DNA from: Escherichia coli
Lineage (GTDB): Bacteria; Pseudomonadota; Gammaproteobacteria; Enterobacterales; Enterobacteriaceae
DNA: 64,000 nt
Assembly: GCF_044324785.1 (NCBI RefSeq)
Contig: NZ_CP172127.1
Reading direction: 5' to 3' (one strand)
Below, in pieces: positions 1-56,885 of this stretch. Positions within the stretch are counted from its first letter, which is position 1; each line of letters starts with the position of its first letter. The notes under the pieces are model-generated. The model ran no database searches. It saw only the letters and a program-made list of their open reading frames with translations, and had not been told where the DNA came from. The position numbers were made by a program, and so were the translations under genes.

Positions 1-399
1 GGAGCCAGCCTGTGGGTGATGCAGGGTAAAGATAAAGAAACGTATACCGGTGTGGCGAAGTTCCTCGACTTCCTCGCGAAGCCAGAAAACGCTGCCGAGT
101 GGCATCAGAAAACTGGTTATCTGCCAATCACCAAAGCGGCGTATGACCTGACCCGTGAGCAGGGTTTTTATGAGAAAAACCCAGGGGCGGATACCGCGAC
201 GCGTCAGATGCTGAATAAGCCGCCGTTACCGTTCACCAAAGGGCTGCGTCTGGGCAACATGCCGCAGATCCGCGTGATTGTGGATGAAGAGCTGGAGAGC
301 GTGTGGACCGGTAAGAAGACACCACAGCAGGCACTGGATACCGCCGTTGAGCGTGGGAACCAGTTACTGCGCCGCTTTGAGAAATCGACGAAGTCTTAA
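1..399 (+). CDS. ugpB: sn-glycerol-3-phosphate ABC transporter periplasmic binding protein, 3' part (5' end lies upstream of window)
   Basis: ORF 16..399 reads through from the window edge; C-terminal sequence and position upstream of ugpAECQ. Confidence 0.85.
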
Positions 400-560
400 T
401 TCTCTTACCCTCACCCTAACCCTCTCCCAAAGGGAGAGGGGACCGATCGGCGTGGTATCCAGGTGCCGTGTCGGTTTGCAACTTCGCTCGGTGGGAAAGT
501 ATGCACCGCCTTTCTCCCTCGCCCCTCTGGGGAGAGGGCCGGGGTGAGGGGAACACAACA
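400..560. repeat. GC-rich composite palindromic intergenic repeat (two inverted copies of a ~35 bp hairpin unit)
   Basis: ccctcaccc-taa-ccctctccc-aaa-gggagaggg at 408-440 and its near-identical inverse complement ...ggagagggccggggtgaggg at 531-550. Confidence 0.6.
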
Positions 561-574
561 CGAAGAGTTTAACT

Positions 575-1462
575 ATGTCATCATCCCGTCCGGTGTTCCG
601 CTCGCGCTGGCTGCCTTACCTGCTGGTCGCGCCGCAGCTCATCATCACCGTTATCTTTTTTATCTGGCCTGCGGGCGAAGCGTTGTGGTACTCGCTACAA
701 AGCGTCGATCCATTTGGTTTCTCCAGCCAGTTTGTCGGTCTGGATAACTTCGTCGCGCTGTTTCATGACAGCTACTATCTCGACTCCTTCTGGACGACGA
801 TAAAATTCAGCACCTTTGTCACCGTCAGCGGTTTGCTGGTATCGCTGTTCTTTGCGGCTCTGGTGGAGTACATCGTGCGCGGCAGCCGTTTCTATCAAAC
901 CTTGATGCTGCTGCCGTATGCCGTGGCTCCCGCCGTTGCCGCCGTATTATGGATCTTCCTGTTTAACCCCGGTCGCGGGTTGATCACCCATTTTCTCGCT
1001 GAGTTCGGCTACGACTGGAACCATGCGCAAAACAGCGGTCAGGCGATGTTCCTGGTGGTGTTTGCCTCGGTGTGGAAGCAAATTAGCTACAACTTCCTGT
1101 TCTTCTATGCCGCGCTGCAATCCATTCCCCGCTCGTTGATCGAAGCCGCAGCCATCGACGGTGCAGGCCCGATTCGCCGCTTCTTTAAGATTGCGCTGCC
1201 GCTTATCGCTCCGGTGAGTTTCTTCCTGCTGGTGGTGAACCTGGTATACGCCTTCTTCGACACCTTCCCGGTGATCGACGCCGCCACGTCCGGCGGGCCG
1301 GTTCAGGCCACCACGACGCTGATTTATAAGATTTACCGCGAAGGCTTTACCGGACTGGATCTGGCTTCGTCTGCCGCGCAGTCGGTGGTGTTGATGTTCC
1401 TCGTCATCGTGCTGACGGTGGTGCAGTTCCGCTATGTTGAAAGCAAGGTGCGTTACCAATGA
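575..1462 (+). CDS. ugpA: sn-glycerol-3-phosphate ABC transporter permease
   Basis: 295 aa polytopic membrane ORF; operon position; 4-nt overlap with next gene. Confidence 0.9.
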
Positions 1463-9703: not shown

Positions 9704-9797
9704 GCGATCAGGAAGACCCTCGCGGAGAACCTGAAAGCACGACATTGCTCACATTGCTTCCAGTATTACTTAGCCAGCCGGGTGCTGGCTTTTTTTT
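9704..9797 (+). ncRNA. ryhB: RyhB iron-responsive small RNA
   Basis: gcgatcaggaagaccctcgcggagaacctgaaagcacgacattgctcacattgcttccagtattacttagccagccgggtgctggcttttttttt matches RyhB as I recall it, with terminator hairpin plus T-run. Confidence 0.92.
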
Positions 9798-9914: not shown

Positions 9915-10952
9915 ATGGTCATCAACTGCGCCTTTATTGGCTTCGGCAAAAGCACCACCCGTTACCATCTGCCGTATGTACTTAACCGCAAGGATAGCTG
10001 GCATGTCGCGCATATTTTTCGCCGCCATGCGAAGCCGGAAGAACAGGCCCCCATTTACTCTCATATCCATTTCACCAGCGATCTCGACGAAGTACTAAAC
10101 GATCCCGATGTTAAGCTGGTTGTGGTCTGCACCCATGCGGACAGCCATTTCGAGTACGCGAAACGCGCGCTGGAAGCCGGGAAAAATGTGCTGGTCGAAA
10201 AACCGTTCACTCCGACGCTTGCGCAGGCGAAAGAGCTGTTTGCTCTGGCGAAAAGTAAAGGGCTGACCGTCACGCCATATCAGAATCGTCGCTTTGATTC
10301 CTGCTTCCTGACAGCGAAAAAAGCGATTGAAAGCGGCAAGCTGGGAGAGATTGTCGAAGTGGAAAGCCATTTTGACTATTACCGCCCGGTGGCAGAAACC
10401 AAACCTGGACTGCCGCAGGATGGCGCGTTTTATGGCCTTGGTGTGCATACGATGGACCAGATTATTTCTCTGTTCGGTCGCCCGGATCACGTCGCTTATG
10501 ACATCCGCAGCCTGCGTAATAAAGCCAATCCTGACGACACCTTTGAAGCGCAGCTGTTTTATGGCGACCTGAAAGCCATCGTCAAAACCAGCCATCTGGT
10601 GAAAATCGATTATCCGAAATTTATCGTTCACGGTAAGAAAGGTTCGTTTATTAAATACGGTATCGACCAGCAGGAAACCAGCCTCAAGGCTAATATTATG
10701 CCGGGCGAACCGGGATTCGCGGCGGATGATTCGGTCGGTGTGCTGGAGTATGTCAATGACGAGGGCGTGACGGTCAGAGAAGAGATAAAGCCGGAGATGG
10801 GCGATTACGGGCGCGTTTATGATGCGTTGTATCAAACCATCACTAACGGTGCGCCAAATTACGTCAAGGAATCTGAAGTTCTTACCAATCTGGAAATCCT
10901 TGAACGAGGATTTGAGCAAGCCTCTCCCTCCACAGTGACTCTCGCGAAGTAA
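9915..10952 (+). CDS. yhhX: Gfo/Idh/MocA family NAD(P)-dependent oxidoreductase
   Basis: 345 aa, N-terminal Rossmann GFGKS, recognisable family. Confidence 0.85.
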   Translation: MVINCAFIGFGKSTTRYHLPYVLNRKDSWHVAHIFRRHAKPEEQAPIYSHIHFTSDLDEVLNDPDVKLVVVCTHADSHFEYAKRALEAGKNVLVEKPFTPTLAQAKELFALAKSKGLTVTPYQNRRFDSCFLTAKKAIESGKLGEIVEVESHFDYYRPVAETKPGLPQDGAFYGLGVHTMDQIISLFGRPDHVAYDIRSLRNKANPDDTFEAQLFYGDLKAIVKTSHLVKIDYPKFIVHGKKGSFIKYGIDQQETSLKANIMPGEPGFAADDSVGVLEYVNDEGVTVREEIKPEMGDYGRVYDALYQTITNGAPNYVKESEVLTNLEILERGFEQASPSTVTLAK

Positions 10953-13659: not shown

Positions 13660-15000
13660 GTGACTACATTAACGCTTGTTTTAACAGCAGTAGGGTCTGT
13701 TTTACTGCTGCTGTTTTTAGTCATGAAGGCGCGTATGCACGCTTTCCTGGCTTTGATGGTGGTGTCCATGGGGGCTGGCCTTTTTTCCGGTATGCCGCTC
13801 GATAAAATCGCAGCGACGATGGAAAAAGGGATGGGAGGCACCCTCGGCTTTCTGGCGGTGGTTGTCGCCCTGGGAGCCATGTTTGGCAAGATCTTACATG
13901 AAACCGGCGCAGTCGATCAGATTGCCGTCAAAATGCTCAAATCCTTCGGTCACAGCCGCGCGCATTATGCCATCGGCCTTGCGGGGCTGGTCTGTGCGCT
14001 GCCGTTGTTCTTTGAAGTGGCGATTGTTCTGCTGATTAGCGTTGCTTTCTCAATGGCGCGCCACACCGGTACGAACCTGGTGAAGCTGGTAATCCCATTA
14101 TTCGCAGGCGTGGCGGCAGCGGCTGCGTTCCTGGTGCCGGGGCCTGCGCCAATGCTGCTGGCATCGCAGATGAACGCCGACTTTGGCTGGATGATCCTGA
14201 TTGGCCTGTGTGCGGCAATTCCGGGAATGATTATTGCCGGGCCGCTGTGGGGTAATTTCATCAGCCGCTACGTGGAGTTGCATATTCCTGACGACATCAG
14301 CGAACCACATCTCGGTGAAGGCAAAATGCCGTCCTTCGGATTCAGCCTGTCGCTGATCCTGTTGCCACTGGTGCTGGTGGGGCTGAAAACCATTGCCGCG
14401 CGCTTTGTGCCGGAAGGCTCTACCGCTTACGAATGGTTCGAGTTTATTGGTCATCCGTTTACCGCGATTCTGGTTGCTTGTCTGGTAGCAATTTATGGCC
14501 TGGCAATGCGTCAGGGTATGCCAAAAGACAAAGTGATGGAAATTTGTGGTCACGCGCTGCAACCGGCGGGGATCATTCTGCTGGTGATTGGTGCAGGCGG
14601 CGTGTTCAAACAGGTGCTGGTTGACTCTGGCGTAGGTCCGGCACTGGGCGAAGCGTTAACCGGCATGGGCCTGCCGATTGCCATCACCTGCTTCGTGCTG
14701 GCAGCTGCAGTGCGCATCATTCAGGGTTCTGCCACCGTTGCCTGTTTAACGGCGGTGGGACTGGTGATGCCGGTTATTGAACAACTGAACTATTCCGGAG
14801 CGCAAATGGCGGCGCTGTCGATTTGTATCGCCGGTGGTTCGATTGTTGTCAGCCACGTTAACGACGCCGGTTTCTGGTTGTTCGGTAAATTTACCGGCGC
14901 GACTGAAGCCGAAACACTGAAAACCTGGACCATGATGGAAACCATCCTCGGCACTGTCGGTGCTATCGTTGGGATGATTGCGTTCCAACTGTTGAGTTAA
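13660..15000 (+). CDS. gntU: low-affinity gluconate:H+ symporter
   Basis: 446 aa GntP-family permease; GTG start 3 bp after gntK stop. Confidence 0.88.
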   Translation: MTTLTLVLTAVGSVLLLLFLVMKARMHAFLALMVVSMGAGLFSGMPLDKIAATMEKGMGGTLGFLAVVVALGAMFGKILHETGAVDQIAVKMLKSFGHSRAHYAIGLAGLVCALPLFFEVAIVLLISVAFSMARHTGTNLVKLVIPLFAGVAAAAAFLVPGPAPMLLASQMNADFGWMILIGLCAAIPGMIIAGPLWGNFISRYVELHIPDDISEPHLGEGKMPSFGFSLSLILLPLVLVGLKTIAARFVPEGSTAYEWFEFIGHPFTAILVACLVAIYGLAMRQGMPKDKVMEICGHALQPAGIILLVIGAGGVFKQVLVDSGVGPALGEALTGMGLPIAITCFVLAAAVRIIQGSATVACLTAVGLVMPVIEQLNYSGAQMAALSICIAGGSIVVSHVNDAGFWLFGKFTGATEAETLKTWTMMETILGTVGAIVGMIAFQLLS

Positions 15001-19268: not shown

Positions 19269-20372
19269 ATGAAAAATGTTGGTTTTATCGGCTGGCGCGG
19301 TATGGTCGGCTCCGTTCTCATGCAACGCATGGTTGAAGAGCGCGACTTCGACGCCATTCGCCCTGTCTTCTTTTCTACTTCACAGCTTGGTCAGGCTGCG
19401 CCGTCTTTTGGCGGAACCACTGGCACACTTCAGGATGCCTTTGATCTGGAGGCGCTAAAGGCCCTCGATATCATTGTGACCTGTCAGGGCGGCGATTATA
19501 CCAACGAAATCTATCCAAAGCTTCGTGAAAGCGGATGGCAAGGTTACTGGATTGACGCAGCATCGTCTCTGCGCATGAAAGATGACGCCATCATCATTCT
19601 TGACCCCGTCAATCAGGACGTCATTACCGACGGATTAAATAATGGCATCAGGACTTTTGTTGGCGGTAACTGTACCGTAAGCCTGATGTTGATGTCGTTG
19701 GGTGGTTTATTCGCCAACGATCTTGTTGATTGGGTGTCCGTTGCAACCTACCAGGCCGCTTCCGGCGGTGGTGCGCGACATATGCGTGAGTTATTAACCC
19801 AGATGGGCCATCTGTATGGCCATGTGGCAGATGAACTCGCGACCCCGTCCTCTGCTATTCTCGATATCGAACGCAAAGTCACAACCTTAACCCGTAGCGG
19901 TGAGCTGCCGGTGGATAACTTTGGCGTGCCGCTGGCGGGTAGCCTGATTCCGTGGATCGACAAACAGCTCGATAACGGTCAGAGCCGCGAAGAGTGGAAA
20001 GGGCAGGCGGAAACCAACAAGATCCTCAACACATCTTCCGTAATTCCGGTAGATGGTTTATGTGTGCGTGTCGGGGCATTGCGCTGCCATAGCCAGGCAT
20101 TCACTATTAAATTGAAAAAAGATGTGTCTATTCCGACCGTGGAAGAACTGCTGGCTGCGCACAATCCGTGGGCGAAAGTCGTTCCGAACGATCGGGAAAT
20201 CACTATGCGTGAGCTAACCCCAGCTGCCGTTACCGGCACGCTGACCACGCCGGTAGGCCGTCTGCGTAAGCTGAATATGGGACCGGAGTTCCTGTCAGCC
20301 TTTACCGTGGGCGACCAGCTGCTGTGGGGGGCCGCGGAGCCGCTACGTCGGATGCTTCGTCAACTGGCGTAA
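19269..20372 (+). CDS. asd: aspartate-semialdehyde dehydrogenase
   Basis: 367 aa from [17 protein letters not shown]; upstream ATG 19209 is an extension. Confidence 0.92.
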
Positions 20373-22831: not shown

Positions 22832-24801
22832 CACAACTCGCCATTGGCAAACCCGCACCCCTCGGCGCGCATTACGACGGTCAGGGCGTCAACTTCACAC
22901 TTTTCTCCGCTCATGCCGAGCGGGTAGAACTGTGTGTCTTTGACGCCAATGGCCAGGAACATCGCTATGACTTGCCAGGGCACAGTGGCGACATTTGGCA
23001 CGGTTATCTGCCGGATGCGCGCCCGGGTTTGCGTTATGGTTATCGCGTTCATGGCCCCTGGCAACCCGCCGAGGGGCATCGCTTTAACCCGGCGAAGTTG
23101 TTGATTGATCCTTGCGCGCGGCAAATTGACGGGGAATTTAAAGATAACCCGCTGCTGCACGCCGGTCATAATGAACCTGACTATCGCGACAACGCCGCCA
23201 TTGCGCCGAAATGCGTAGTGGTGGTTGATCACTATGACTGGGAGGATGATGCTCCGCCGCGCACGCCGTGGGGCAGTACCATCATTTATGAAGCCCATGT
23301 CAAAGGATTAACGTACCTGCACCCGGAGATCCCGGTCGAGATCCGTGGCACTTATAAAGCCCTGGGGCATCCGGTGATGATCAACTATTTGAAACAGTTG
23401 GGCATTACCGCGCTGGAACTGCTGCCGGTGGCGCAGTTTGCCAGCGAACCACGCCTGCAACGTATGGGTCTAAGTAACTACTGGGGTTATAACCCGGTGG
23501 CGATGTTTGCGCTGCATCCGGCGTATGCCTGCTCCCCAGAAACGGCGCTTGATGAGTTTCGCGATGCAATCAAAGCACTGCATAAAGCGGGTATCGAAGT
23601 CATTCTTGATATCGTGCTCAACCATAGTGCGGAACTGGACCTCGACGGCCCGTTATTCTCTCTGCGTGGGATCGACAACCGTAGCTATTATTGGATAAGA
23701 GAAGACGGCGATTATCACAACTGGACCGGTTGTGGCAACACGCTCAATTTGAGTCATCCGGCGGTGGTGGATTATGCCAGCGCCTGCCTGCGTTATTGGG
23801 TAGAAACCTGCCACGTCGATGGTTTCCGCTTTGATCTGGCGGCAGTCATGGGCCGTACGCCAGAGTTTCGTCAGGATGCGCCGTTGTTTACCGCTATCCA
23901 GAACTGCCCGGTGCTCTCGCAGGTGAAGTTAATTGCTGAACCGTGGGATATTGCTCCTGGTGGTTATCAGGTGGGAAATTTCCCACCGCTGTTTGCCGAG
24001 TGGAACGATCATTTCCGCGATGCTGCCCGTCGTTTCTGGCTTCATTATGATTTGCCTCTGGGGGCGTTTGCCGGGCGTTTTGCTGCCTCCAGCGATGTTT
24101 TTAAACGTAATGGTCGTCTGCCGAGTGCCGCGATTAATCTCGTCACCGCGCATGACGGTTTTACGCTTCGCGACTGCGTTTGCTTCAACCATAAACATAA
24201 TGAAGCAAACGGAGAAGAAAATCGCGACGGGACCAACAACAATTACAGTAACAATCATGGTAAAGAAGGGTTAGGCGGTACTCTTGACCTGGTTGAACGG
24301 CGTCGCGACAGCATTCACGCCCTGTTAACAACGTTGTTGCTCTCCCAGGGTACGCCGATGTTACTGGCCGGTGACGAACATGGTCACAGCCAGCATGGCA
24401 ATAACAATGCCTACTGTCAGGATAACCAATTAACCTGGTTGGACTGGTCGCAGGCAAGCAGTGGTTTAACCGCATTTACCGCCGCGTTAATCCATCTGCG
24501 CAAGCGCATTCCCGCTTTGGTGGAGAATCGCTGGTGGGAAGAAGGCGACGGCAATGTCCGTTGGCTAAATCGATATGCTCAACCTTTAAGCACGGATGAG
24601 TGGCAAAACGGGCCGAAACAGCTGCAAATTCTGCTCTCGGATCGCTTTTTGATCGCAATTAACGCCACGCTTGAGGTAACAGAGATTGTTTTACCTGCTG
24701 GGGAGTGGCACGCCATTCCCCCATTCGCTGGAGAGGATAACCCAGTGATTACGGCTGTCTGGCAGGGACCTGCACACGGATTGTGTGTGTTCCAGAGATG
24801 A
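22828..24801 (+). CDS. glgX: glycogen debranching enzyme
   Basis: 657 aa, ATGA overlap with glgB. Confidence 0.93.
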
Positions 24802-48717: not shown

Positions 48718-48745
48718 GATGCCGGATGCGATGCATCCGGCAGTC
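48718..48745. repeat. REP element
   Basis: gatgccggatgcgatgcatccggcagtc between convergent malQ and gntT. Confidence 0.7.
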
Positions 48746-50371: not shown

Positions 50372-50429
<58 letters not shown>

Positions 50430-51005
50430 TTAGTAGTAGGAGTGCTCGCCGCGCTGGTGTTCGGTGAGATCGCGCACACCTTTCAGCTCCGGGAATTCGT
50501 TCAGCAGCTGCTTCTCGATCCCTTCTTTCAGCGTCACATCTACCATAGAACAACCGTTACAGCCGCCGCCAAATTGCAGAATGGCGTAACCGTCTTCGGT
50601 GATTTCCATCAGCGAAACGCGACCACCGTGACCAGCAAGCTGTGGGTTGATCTGCGACTGCAGCATATACTCCACGCGCTCCATCAGCGGTGCATCGTCT
50701 GCGACTTTACGCATTTTGGCGTTAGGCGCTTTCAGCGTTAACTGGGAACCCAACTGGTCTGTAACAAAGTCGATCTCTGCATCTTCCAGGTAAGGAGCGC
50801 TTAACTCATCAACATACGCGGTCAGCAGGTCAAATTTCAGGGCAGTGTCGGTGGCTTCCACAGCATCCGGCGGACAATAAGAAACGCCACATTCAGCGTT
50901 AGGCGTGCCAGGGTTAATCACAAATACGCGGATTTGTGTCCCTTCTTCCTGATTTGCCAGCAGTTTGGCAAAGTGCGCTTGTGCAGCATCGGAAATACGG
51001 ATCAT
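50430..51005 (-). CDS. nfuA: Fe-S cluster carrier protein NfuA
   Basis: 191 aa, C-terminal CNGC motif. Confidence 0.92.
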
Positions 51006-56839: not shown

Positions 56840-56885
56840 GGCGTTCGTTGCCAGATGCGGCGTGAACGCCTTATCGCGCAGGTTT
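56840..56885. repeat. REP element
   Basis: tgccagatgcggcgtgaacgccttatcgcgcagg. Confidence 0.65.

Follow-up and report, generated by a model that had tools for sequence, protein, structure and literature searches.

The stretch of DNA analysed here (64,000 nucleotides of Escherichia coli sequence, hereafter the window) opens with the 3' end of ugpB, which is followed, after a spacer of 175 bp, by the permease gene ugpA (Table 1). These gene names had been proposed in a sequence-only reading that preceded the present analysis, and the RefSeq annotation under identical matches bears them out. The genes ugpBAECQ constitute one operon, and the spacer therefore lies inside its polycistronic transcript. 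The same reading had described two near-identical, hairpin-forming units in inverted orientation, and the pair is real: a 20-nt core, CCCTCACCCNNNCCCTCTCC, occurs at exactly two places in the 64 kb, at 408-427 on the plus strand and at 531-550 on the minus strand, with 0.00 occurrences expected from dinucleotide shuffles. An inverted-repeat search delimits 42-nt arms at 400-441 and 517-558, which are 71% complementary and have 75 nt between them, in good agreement with the separation of about 70 bp given earlier. The left unit lies where it had been placed (408-440; in plus-strand reading, CCCTCACCC-TAA-CCCTCTCCC-AAA-GGGAGAGGG), but the right one starts at 516 and not at 510. The ribosome-binding site of ugpA also belongs to the variable part of the spacer, being AAGAG in the window allele versus AGGA, in another context, in the allele of strain K-12, which carries repetitive extragenic palindromes (REPs) at this position.

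Table 1. Features of the ugpB-ugpA region in window coordinates
Feature	Position	Strand	Sequence or remark	Basis
ugpB 3' end (periplasmic glycerol-3-phosphate binding protein)	1..399	+	stop codon TAA at 397-399	ORF list; RefSeq annotation under 100% matches
Whole composite, units back to back (5' ends facing)	400..558	none		inverted repeat, RNA fold and helix kept in 7 homologous copies
BoxC/PIT/TMECO unit, type A	408..440	-	minus strand reads CCCTCTCCC-TTT-GGGAGAGGG-TTA-GGGTGAGGG	exact match to the published TMECO consensus pattern (PMC4666352)
5' flank specific to type A	441..453	-	minus strand ACGCCGATCGGTC; family consensus GCNCCGAWCNGTC	conserved beside type A units of K-12 and other genera (units in register) and in the lldD-trmL paralog
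Locus-specific spacer, single-copy in E. coli	454..502	none		query 441-515 finds one place per genome, only in the 317 carriers of the BoxC allele
5' flank specific to type B	503..515	+	GCACCGCCTTTCT; family consensus GCNCCG(N)YTTTTCT	conserved beside type B units of K-12 and other genera
BoxC/PIT/TMECO unit, type B with one mismatched triplet ('B mm')	516..551	+	CCCTCGCCC-CTCTG-GGGAGAGGG-CCG-GGGTGAGGG-G	exact match to the TMECO consensus
AAGAG, Shine-Dalgarno-like, for ugpA	563..567	+		direct reading; within the allele-specific part of the spacer
ugpA (permease), next gene of the operon	575..1462	+	ATG at 575	ORF list; annotation

Both units match the pattern 5'-CCCTCNCCC-N3-6-GGGNGAGGG-N3-GGGNGAGGG-3' without mismatch, the left one at 408-440 on the minus strand and the right one at 516-550 on the plus strand (0.00 matches expected in shuffles). 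This pattern is the TMECO consensus of Holder et al. 2015 (PMC4666352); the same repeat was named BoxC by Bachellier and colleagues in the 1990s and PIT element (potential intrastrand triplex) by Hoyne and Maher in 2000. K-12 MG1655 contains 23 TMECO units, every one of them intergenic, which are divided by their second loop into type A (TTA) and type B (CCG); at five places two units lie close together in inverted orientation, each time one A and one B (PMC4666352). BoxC is also listed among the known stem-loop families of E. coli, with a length of 56 bp and 32 copies in the earlier literature versus 50 bp and 22 copies in the authors' own search (Petrillo et al. 2008, PMC2267715). The family is GC-rich and strictly intergenic, and it is dispersed in other proteobacteria besides E. 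coli. The window pair, located between the ugpB stop codon and the ugpA start codon, follows the same pairing rule: the left unit, whose loop on the minus strand is TTA, is a perfect type A, while the right unit has the loop CCG and is a type B with one mismatched triplet. The latter differs in a single loop base from K-12 TMECO no. 3, a type B mm unit that was probed by in vivo DMS footprinting.

Judged by its sequence, the feature is almost certainly an inverted BoxC pair, with type A on the minus strand and type B on the plus strand, their 5' ends facing each other across 75 bp. As inverted A+B pairing has already been published for five K-12 loci, the pair represents neither a new element nor REP; the ugp locus is missing from the 23 K-12 units because K-12 carries REP there. 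With the family known since the 1990s and the arrangement published in 2000 and 2015, the BoxC pair at ugp is real but ordinary, and the sequence-only reading had missed both that the family is named and that the inverted A+B arrangement is published. The part of the Holder 2015 supplement (a catalogue of 63 loci) that was accessible as text contains no match to ugpB/ugpA or to the exact type A unit. Of the literature searched for later BoxC/TMECO work and for REP or ugpB transcript data, only Holder 2015 and Petrillo 2008 proved useful.

When the 171-bp composite was used as a BLAST query, 15,241 places were located in 4,508 of the 5,426 complete E. coli genomes, nearly all of them chromosomal, with a median of three and a maximum of eight places per genome at that BLAST threshold. 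Together with the 23 units published for K-12, these numbers confirm the earlier suggestion of a dispersed repeat: the genome-wide copy search that had been proposed as a check finds a multi-copy unit and not a unique one. K-12 has one full-length paralog of equal geometry, between lldD and trmL, which corresponds to the published pair 17+18. In the alignment of the two loci, both units and about 13 nt on the inner side of each are conserved, and the centres are unrelated; the central 75 bp (query 441-515) occur once per genome, at ugp, in exactly 317 genomes. The name RSA, which the K-12 genome paper reportedly gives to a 152-bp repeat, was considered for the composite and dropped, since K-12 has only one pair of such geometry. 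A single type A unit was also seen in the K-12 pstA-pstB spacer (NC_000913.3 3908495-3908529), inside pstSCAB, another ABC-transporter operon of the Pho regulon.

The extent of the repeat unit is indicated by a register alignment of 24 units (11 from K-12, 2 from the window, and 11 from other genera). Upstream of type A units stands GCNCCGAWCNGTC, and upstream of type B units GCNCCG(N)YTTTTCT; with these type-specific 5' flanks of about 13 nt, the repeat unit comprises about 50-56 nt and is thus longer than the triplex core of 34-37 nt. This length agrees with the old BoxC size of 56 bp (figures of 56 and 50 bp in PMC2267715), and the flanks, together with the rules for linkers, delimit the unit more sharply than the 36-nt triplex core does. 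In four K-12 pairs the 3' ends face each other, and three of these share the linker TTCGCRCCAGTGCYGGCCTGTTCC; at ugp and lldD-trmL the 5' ends face each other. Kluyvera, Pluralibacter, and Superficieibacter harbor a collapsed inner unit pair between the outer units, that is, arrays of alternating orientation. In Superficieibacter electus (locus L016, 893-1200), the 308-bp spacer contains two tandem segments of about 105 bp between the outer A and B units, each with BoxC flank motifs and with a collapsed inner unit between them.

The syntax of BoxC appears to resemble that of BIMEs built from REPs. It is conceivable, albeit unlikely, that BoxC is less a loose triplex motif than a second system akin to REP/BIME, given its two types with their own 5' flanks, its alternating joints (3'-3' with the linker TTCGCRCCAGTGCYGGCCTGTTCC, or 5'-5'), its longer arrays in some genera, and the presence of pairs whose arms are nearly identical in Gammaproteobacteria as well as in Azospirillum. 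Such a system would imply a dedicated mobilizing or recombining enzyme, analogous to RAYT for REP; the ugpB-ugpA spacer would then be a 'hairpin slot' under selection, which REP and BoxC pairs could fill interchangeably as functional occupants. REPs are moved by RAYT transposases, and we know of no mobilizing enzyme for BoxC.

The sequence-only reading had also held that the feature is not a canonical REP and that REPs occur elsewhere in the window, and both parts proved correct. The REP core (an imperfect palindrome of the GCCGGATG type) has no match within 400-574, whereas elsewhere in the window 14 REP-like cores are found at two mismatches or fewer, compared with 3.2 expected. Such cores are located at 23510-23522, 48721-48741 (a back-to-back pair), 50395-50407, 50859-50871, and 56850-56862. 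At the Rfam gathering threshold the sole match in the whole window is the small RNA RyhB (9733-9797 on the plus strand; full length, 83.1 bits versus a gathering score of 55), and the region 400-574 has none; at a relaxed threshold, this region yields only sub-threshold matches at chance level. The best of these, whalefall-1 (RF01762; 407-442 on the minus strand), was rejected, as its score of 17.7 bits falls below the gathering score of 37 and its linker has 24 nt versus 3 nt here. The residual similarity arises because both show a CUCUCC/GGAGAG hairpin followed by AGGGUGAGG, and whalefall-1, a metagenomic motif, may be a related repeat.

Within E. coli, the spacer exists in two alleles. Queries anchored in the flanks assigned 317 genomes to the BoxC allele and 5,105 to the REP allele, which together account for 5,422 of the 5,423 genomes having the locus (5,426 complete genomes searched); the BoxC pair is thus the minor allele, carried by about 6% of E. 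coli. The K-12 spacer has 97 bp and contains two REPs and nothing alignable to the window spacer: homology between K-12 and the window ends right after the ugpB stop codon and returns only a few bases upstream of the ugpA ATG. The flanking 300 nt are 97.7-98.0% identical, versus 38% for the spacer. Strain EC20 has the three SNPs of the window in the final 45 nt of ugpB but a K-12-identical spacer; the exchange was thus limited to the spacer. A decayed BoxC allele was observed in strain N3 (locus L088, 256-427), where most of block 1 in the type B unit is lost to a 7-nt deletion, 4 bp are inserted behind the ugpB stop codon, and several spacer positions are substituted; change of this kind at BoxC loci has been described by Holder et al. 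(PMC4666352). A natural pair of REP and BoxC alleles in one intra-operon spacer, in near-identical backgrounds, offers a ready-made test of whether BoxC pairs affect mRNA at all. Modest descriptive additions are the spacer-confined dimorphism, the recurrence of the pair in other genera, the flanks specific to each type, and the rules for linkers.

The recurrence became apparent from 80 ugp loci of species-representative genomes, which were fetched with a UgpA probe and from which the ugpB-ugpA spacers were extracted. A back-to-back A/B pair of BoxC units occupies this spacer in six other enterobacterial species out of 22 sampled, namely a Pseudocitrobacter MAG, Pluralibacter UBA7423, Kluyvera genomosp. 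1, Superficieibacter electus, Enterobacteriaceae RIT691, and Enterobacter cloacae DSM 26481. Enterobacter BIGb0383 and Pluralibacter gergoviae carry collapsed hairpin remnants, and in Leclercia a BoxC-like unit is flanked by two REPs. Spacers of the REP type occur in E. albertii, Pseudocitrobacter faecalis, Citrobacter, Pseudescherichia, and others. With 89.7% identity, the REP spacers of K-12 and P. faecalis are as similar to each other as the genes that flank them, and hence the REP allele appears to be old and passed on vertically. The context of the ugpA ribosome-binding site changes with the class of the spacer (AGAGTTTAACT-ATG with BoxC, TTCAGGAATTAAC...ATG with REP). The occurrence of both classes in Escherichia as well as in Pseudocitrobacter points to either an old polymorphism or recombination through the conserved coding flanks. 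A record titled E. coli SCPM-O-B-8794 (locus L004, 1101-1200) has a Citrobacter-type REP spacer, a third class; the 3' end of its ugpB is only 93% identical to that of K-12, and it may represent another Escherichia species.

Partial matches were also obtained on 353 plasmid records, and several of these 'plasmids' are chromosome-like replicons. Plasmid p2 of Azospirillum argentinense Az39 (locus L089), an alphaproteobacterial replicon, carries five strict TMECO units within 40 kb (10346-10380, 14140-14246, and 20004-20112), among them two A/B pairs; one B/A pair in this species, with arms about 90% identical, lies between the binding-protein gene and the permease gene of an ABC transporter. 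'Plasmid unnamed1' of Enterobacter hormaechei (locus L090, NZ_CP077309.1) is linear, non-mobilizable, and 606 kb long, contains the core genes cpxAR, sodA, rha, and fdo, and looks like a misfiled chromosome fragment. Its BoxC content comprises an outward pair, two overlapping type A units, and a single unit directly after the rhamnose binding-protein gene. The binding-protein contexts in Azospirillum and E. hormaechei echo that of ugpB-ugpA, as anecdotes. An association with phages was discarded: the only two phage matches equal the K-12 lldD-trmL copy in span, identity, and score, and look like contamination. Both are 'Campylobacter phage' records (MG065686.1, 13636-13765; MG065691.1, 160358-160487) with a 130-bp match of 71.2% identity and three places per record, and E. 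coli DNA is probably present in their assemblies.

At the level of RNA, the folding check that the sequence-only reading had called for, with Watson-Crick pairs only, predicts a long GC-rich hairpin for 395-580, with a minimum free energy (MFE) of -84.3 kcal/mol versus -65.4 ± 4.2 kcal/mol for shuffles (z = -4.49). In the predicted MFE structure, the outer blocks of the two units pair into one long interrupted GC-rich helix, an arrangement likewise expected of the region as single-stranded DNA. Each unit can also form a local hairpin of its own, and type A as single-stranded DNA is predicted to form a perfect 9-bp hairpin. Seven homologous copies from six genera have the long-range helix as their consensus structure, which comprises 29 pairs and includes one clean compensatory change (A-U to U-A, in two sequences). 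Because the helix arms are themselves family repeats, conservation of the helix does not separate RNA constraint from homogenization of the arms, and the few compensatory changes could equally reflect such homogenization or a constraint at the DNA level. The K-12 REP spacer is at least equally structured (z = -7.3). More generally, 38 of 48 ugpB-ugpA spacers from Enterobacterales, Vibrio, and Aeromonas have z < -2 (median -3.9), and nearly all of the 18 short spacers inspected contain a GC-rich stem-loop of 8-19 bp soon after the ugpB stop codon. That the pair recurs in this spacer in several genera, and that nearly all taxa examined have a hairpin there, suggests that selection retains structure at this position. 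However, structure is also common in the other intergenic regions of the window (median z = -2.1, with 9 of 17 below -2), and the cross-genus signal is therefore suggestive only.

Taken as a whole, the locus is best explained, with a probability of roughly 0.8, as a BoxC pair that replaces REP and that may act as an exonuclease barrier in the ugpB mRNA. For the role as such our preference is tentative: protection of the ugpB message by a barrier to exonucleases is the most likely local function, and it appears roughly as likely as a passive repeat, each being rated below even odds. Inside the ugpBAECQ mRNA, the pair would fold into stable GC-rich stem-loops from 8 nt past the ugpB stop codon, and these would block 3'-to-5' exonucleases. 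After cleavage further downstream, the ugpB segment might outlive the permease segment, and binding protein would be produced in excess over permease. REP reportedly acts as such an mRNA stabilizer at malE-malF, in work attributed to Newbury et al. from 1987. The idea of a stabilizer, already raised in the sequence-only reading, is plausible in light of the REP pair at the same spot in K-12 and the stem-loop in nearly all ugpB-ugpA spacers. In published tests, PIT elements had neither promoter nor terminator activity and no effect on RNA polymerase, and BoxC loci have been found to have no consistent position relative to genes, no functional class of neighbors, and no general regulatory role (PMC4666352). 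None of the K-12 BoxC loci whose neighbors were looked up lies directly after a binding-protein gene; any stabilizing role would thus be specific to this site and not a function of the family.

Under the passive alternative, ugp expression would be the same with or without the BoxC pair, the spacer being a permissive place where repeats come and go and the dimorphism merely reflecting turnover. This is in line with three unrelated occupants across genera (the K-12-type REP pair, the Citrobacter-type REP pair, and the BoxC pairs), in addition to the remnants and the mixture of REP and BoxC in Leclercia, as well as with the 7-nt deletion in strain N3 and with the frequent 'intergenic change' without regulatory signal that Holder et al. 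report at BoxC loci (PMC4666352). Nevertheless, distant genera without these repeats still keep a strong hairpin at the position, and so do the collapsed remnants (L014 and L020), which argues that the structure itself is retained in the spacer. An effect on the DNA is unlikely to be the main consequence of the pair, although the G-rich strands might form intrastrand purine triplexes, or the pair a cruciform, which would stall replication or repair and lead to instability. TMECO oligonucleotides form very stable triplexes in vitro and stop the polymerase in primer extension, those of type B mm melt in vitro at 70 C, and TMECO loci vary more between strains than controls (PMC4666352); the ugp locus is polymorphic as well. 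Yet in vivo DMS footprinting gave no protection, double-stranded TMECO produced the signals of an ordinary duplex (PMC4666352), and the ugp locus, with its flanking genes intact, exhibits only two clean alleles in 5,422 of 5,423 genomes rather than a spectrum of rearrangements.

Somewhat less probable still is an action on translation, by which a hairpin near the ugpB stop codon might stall terminating ribosomes and lower UgpB, or the outermost pairing might mask the ribosome-binding site of ugpA until translation of ugpB. Ribosomes are said to stall where a REP lies within 15 nt of a stop codon, an observation attributed to Liang, Rudd and Deutscher (2015) and made for REP. The main helix begins at 408, 8 nt past the stop codon, and the REP allele likewise starts about 9-10 nt past it, but the distance rule concerns REP only. 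Similarly, the MFE structure pairs 402-406 (CUCUU) with 564-568 (AGAGU), overlapping the Shine-Dalgarno sequence of ugpA; this outer pairing is weak and does not form part of the consensus structure for the homologous copies, and a sequestering outer helix was accordingly rejected. It is improbable that the 145-bp composite is a MITE, moved in trans by a transposase, even though it has long imperfect terminal inverted repeats (42-nt arms, 71% complementary), shares its back-to-back geometry with copies at K-12 lldD-trmL and E. hormaechei fucO, and has counterparts in the A/B pairs of Azospirillum replicons, in the opposite geometry with 3' ends facing. A target-site duplication is absent: TTCTCTTA and AACACAAC, which flank the composite, are unrelated, and direct reading gave the same result for the lldD-trmL copy and in six further genera. 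Single units exist as well, as do units in 3'-to-3' geometry, no association with IS elements has been reported (PMC4666352), and the centre is wholly different between loci. On account of the missing target-site duplication and the single-copy centre, the MITE reading was rejected. The 'small non-autonomous repeat element' of the sequence-only reading is thus weakly supported: membership in a dispersed repeat family stands, but the absence of a target-site duplication and the single-copy central 75 bp speak against it. The least probable of the proposals is an attenuator or terminator that cuts read-through from ugpB into ugpA, which the sequence-only reading had likewise suggested. Its position would fit, and in several other genera (Pantoea stewartii, Brenneria, Pectobacterium, and Pluralibacter gergoviae) the spacer hairpin is followed by a T-run. 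The suggestion is not supported in the window, where neither unit precedes a U-run (3' sequences GACCGAUC and AACACAAC), and scans of 250-750 found no terminator-like site and no sigma-70-like promoter; the lack of terminator activity in the tested PIT elements points the same way.

Among known systems, the closest to the window pair is the BoxC/PIT/TMECO family itself, with which it shares the consensus, loop types A and B, the intergenic site, and the inverted A+B arrangement. Pair 17+18 of K-12 (lldD-trmL) agrees with it in geometry and inner flanks, whereas the 75-bp inter-unit spacer at ugp is longer than those in the K-12 pairs. The Correia/NEMIS elements of Neisseria and the ERIC/IRU elements of Yersinia, transcribed MITE-like repeats with an influence on the fate of mRNA, are similar in being about 100-150 bp long, having terminal inverted repeats, and being co-transcribed into long RNA hairpins; unlike them, the ugp pair lacks a target-site duplication and a conserved core, its centre being locus-specific. 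REP/BIME and BoxC are both intergenic palindromes with two unit types, alternating orientation, and conserved linkers. They share no sequence similarity, BoxC consisting of three homopurine/homopyrimidine blocks and REP of one simple palindrome. REP/BIME, a known stabilizer of upstream mRNA in binding-protein operons (malE-malF), occupies the same ugpB-ugpA spacer in 94% of E. coli.
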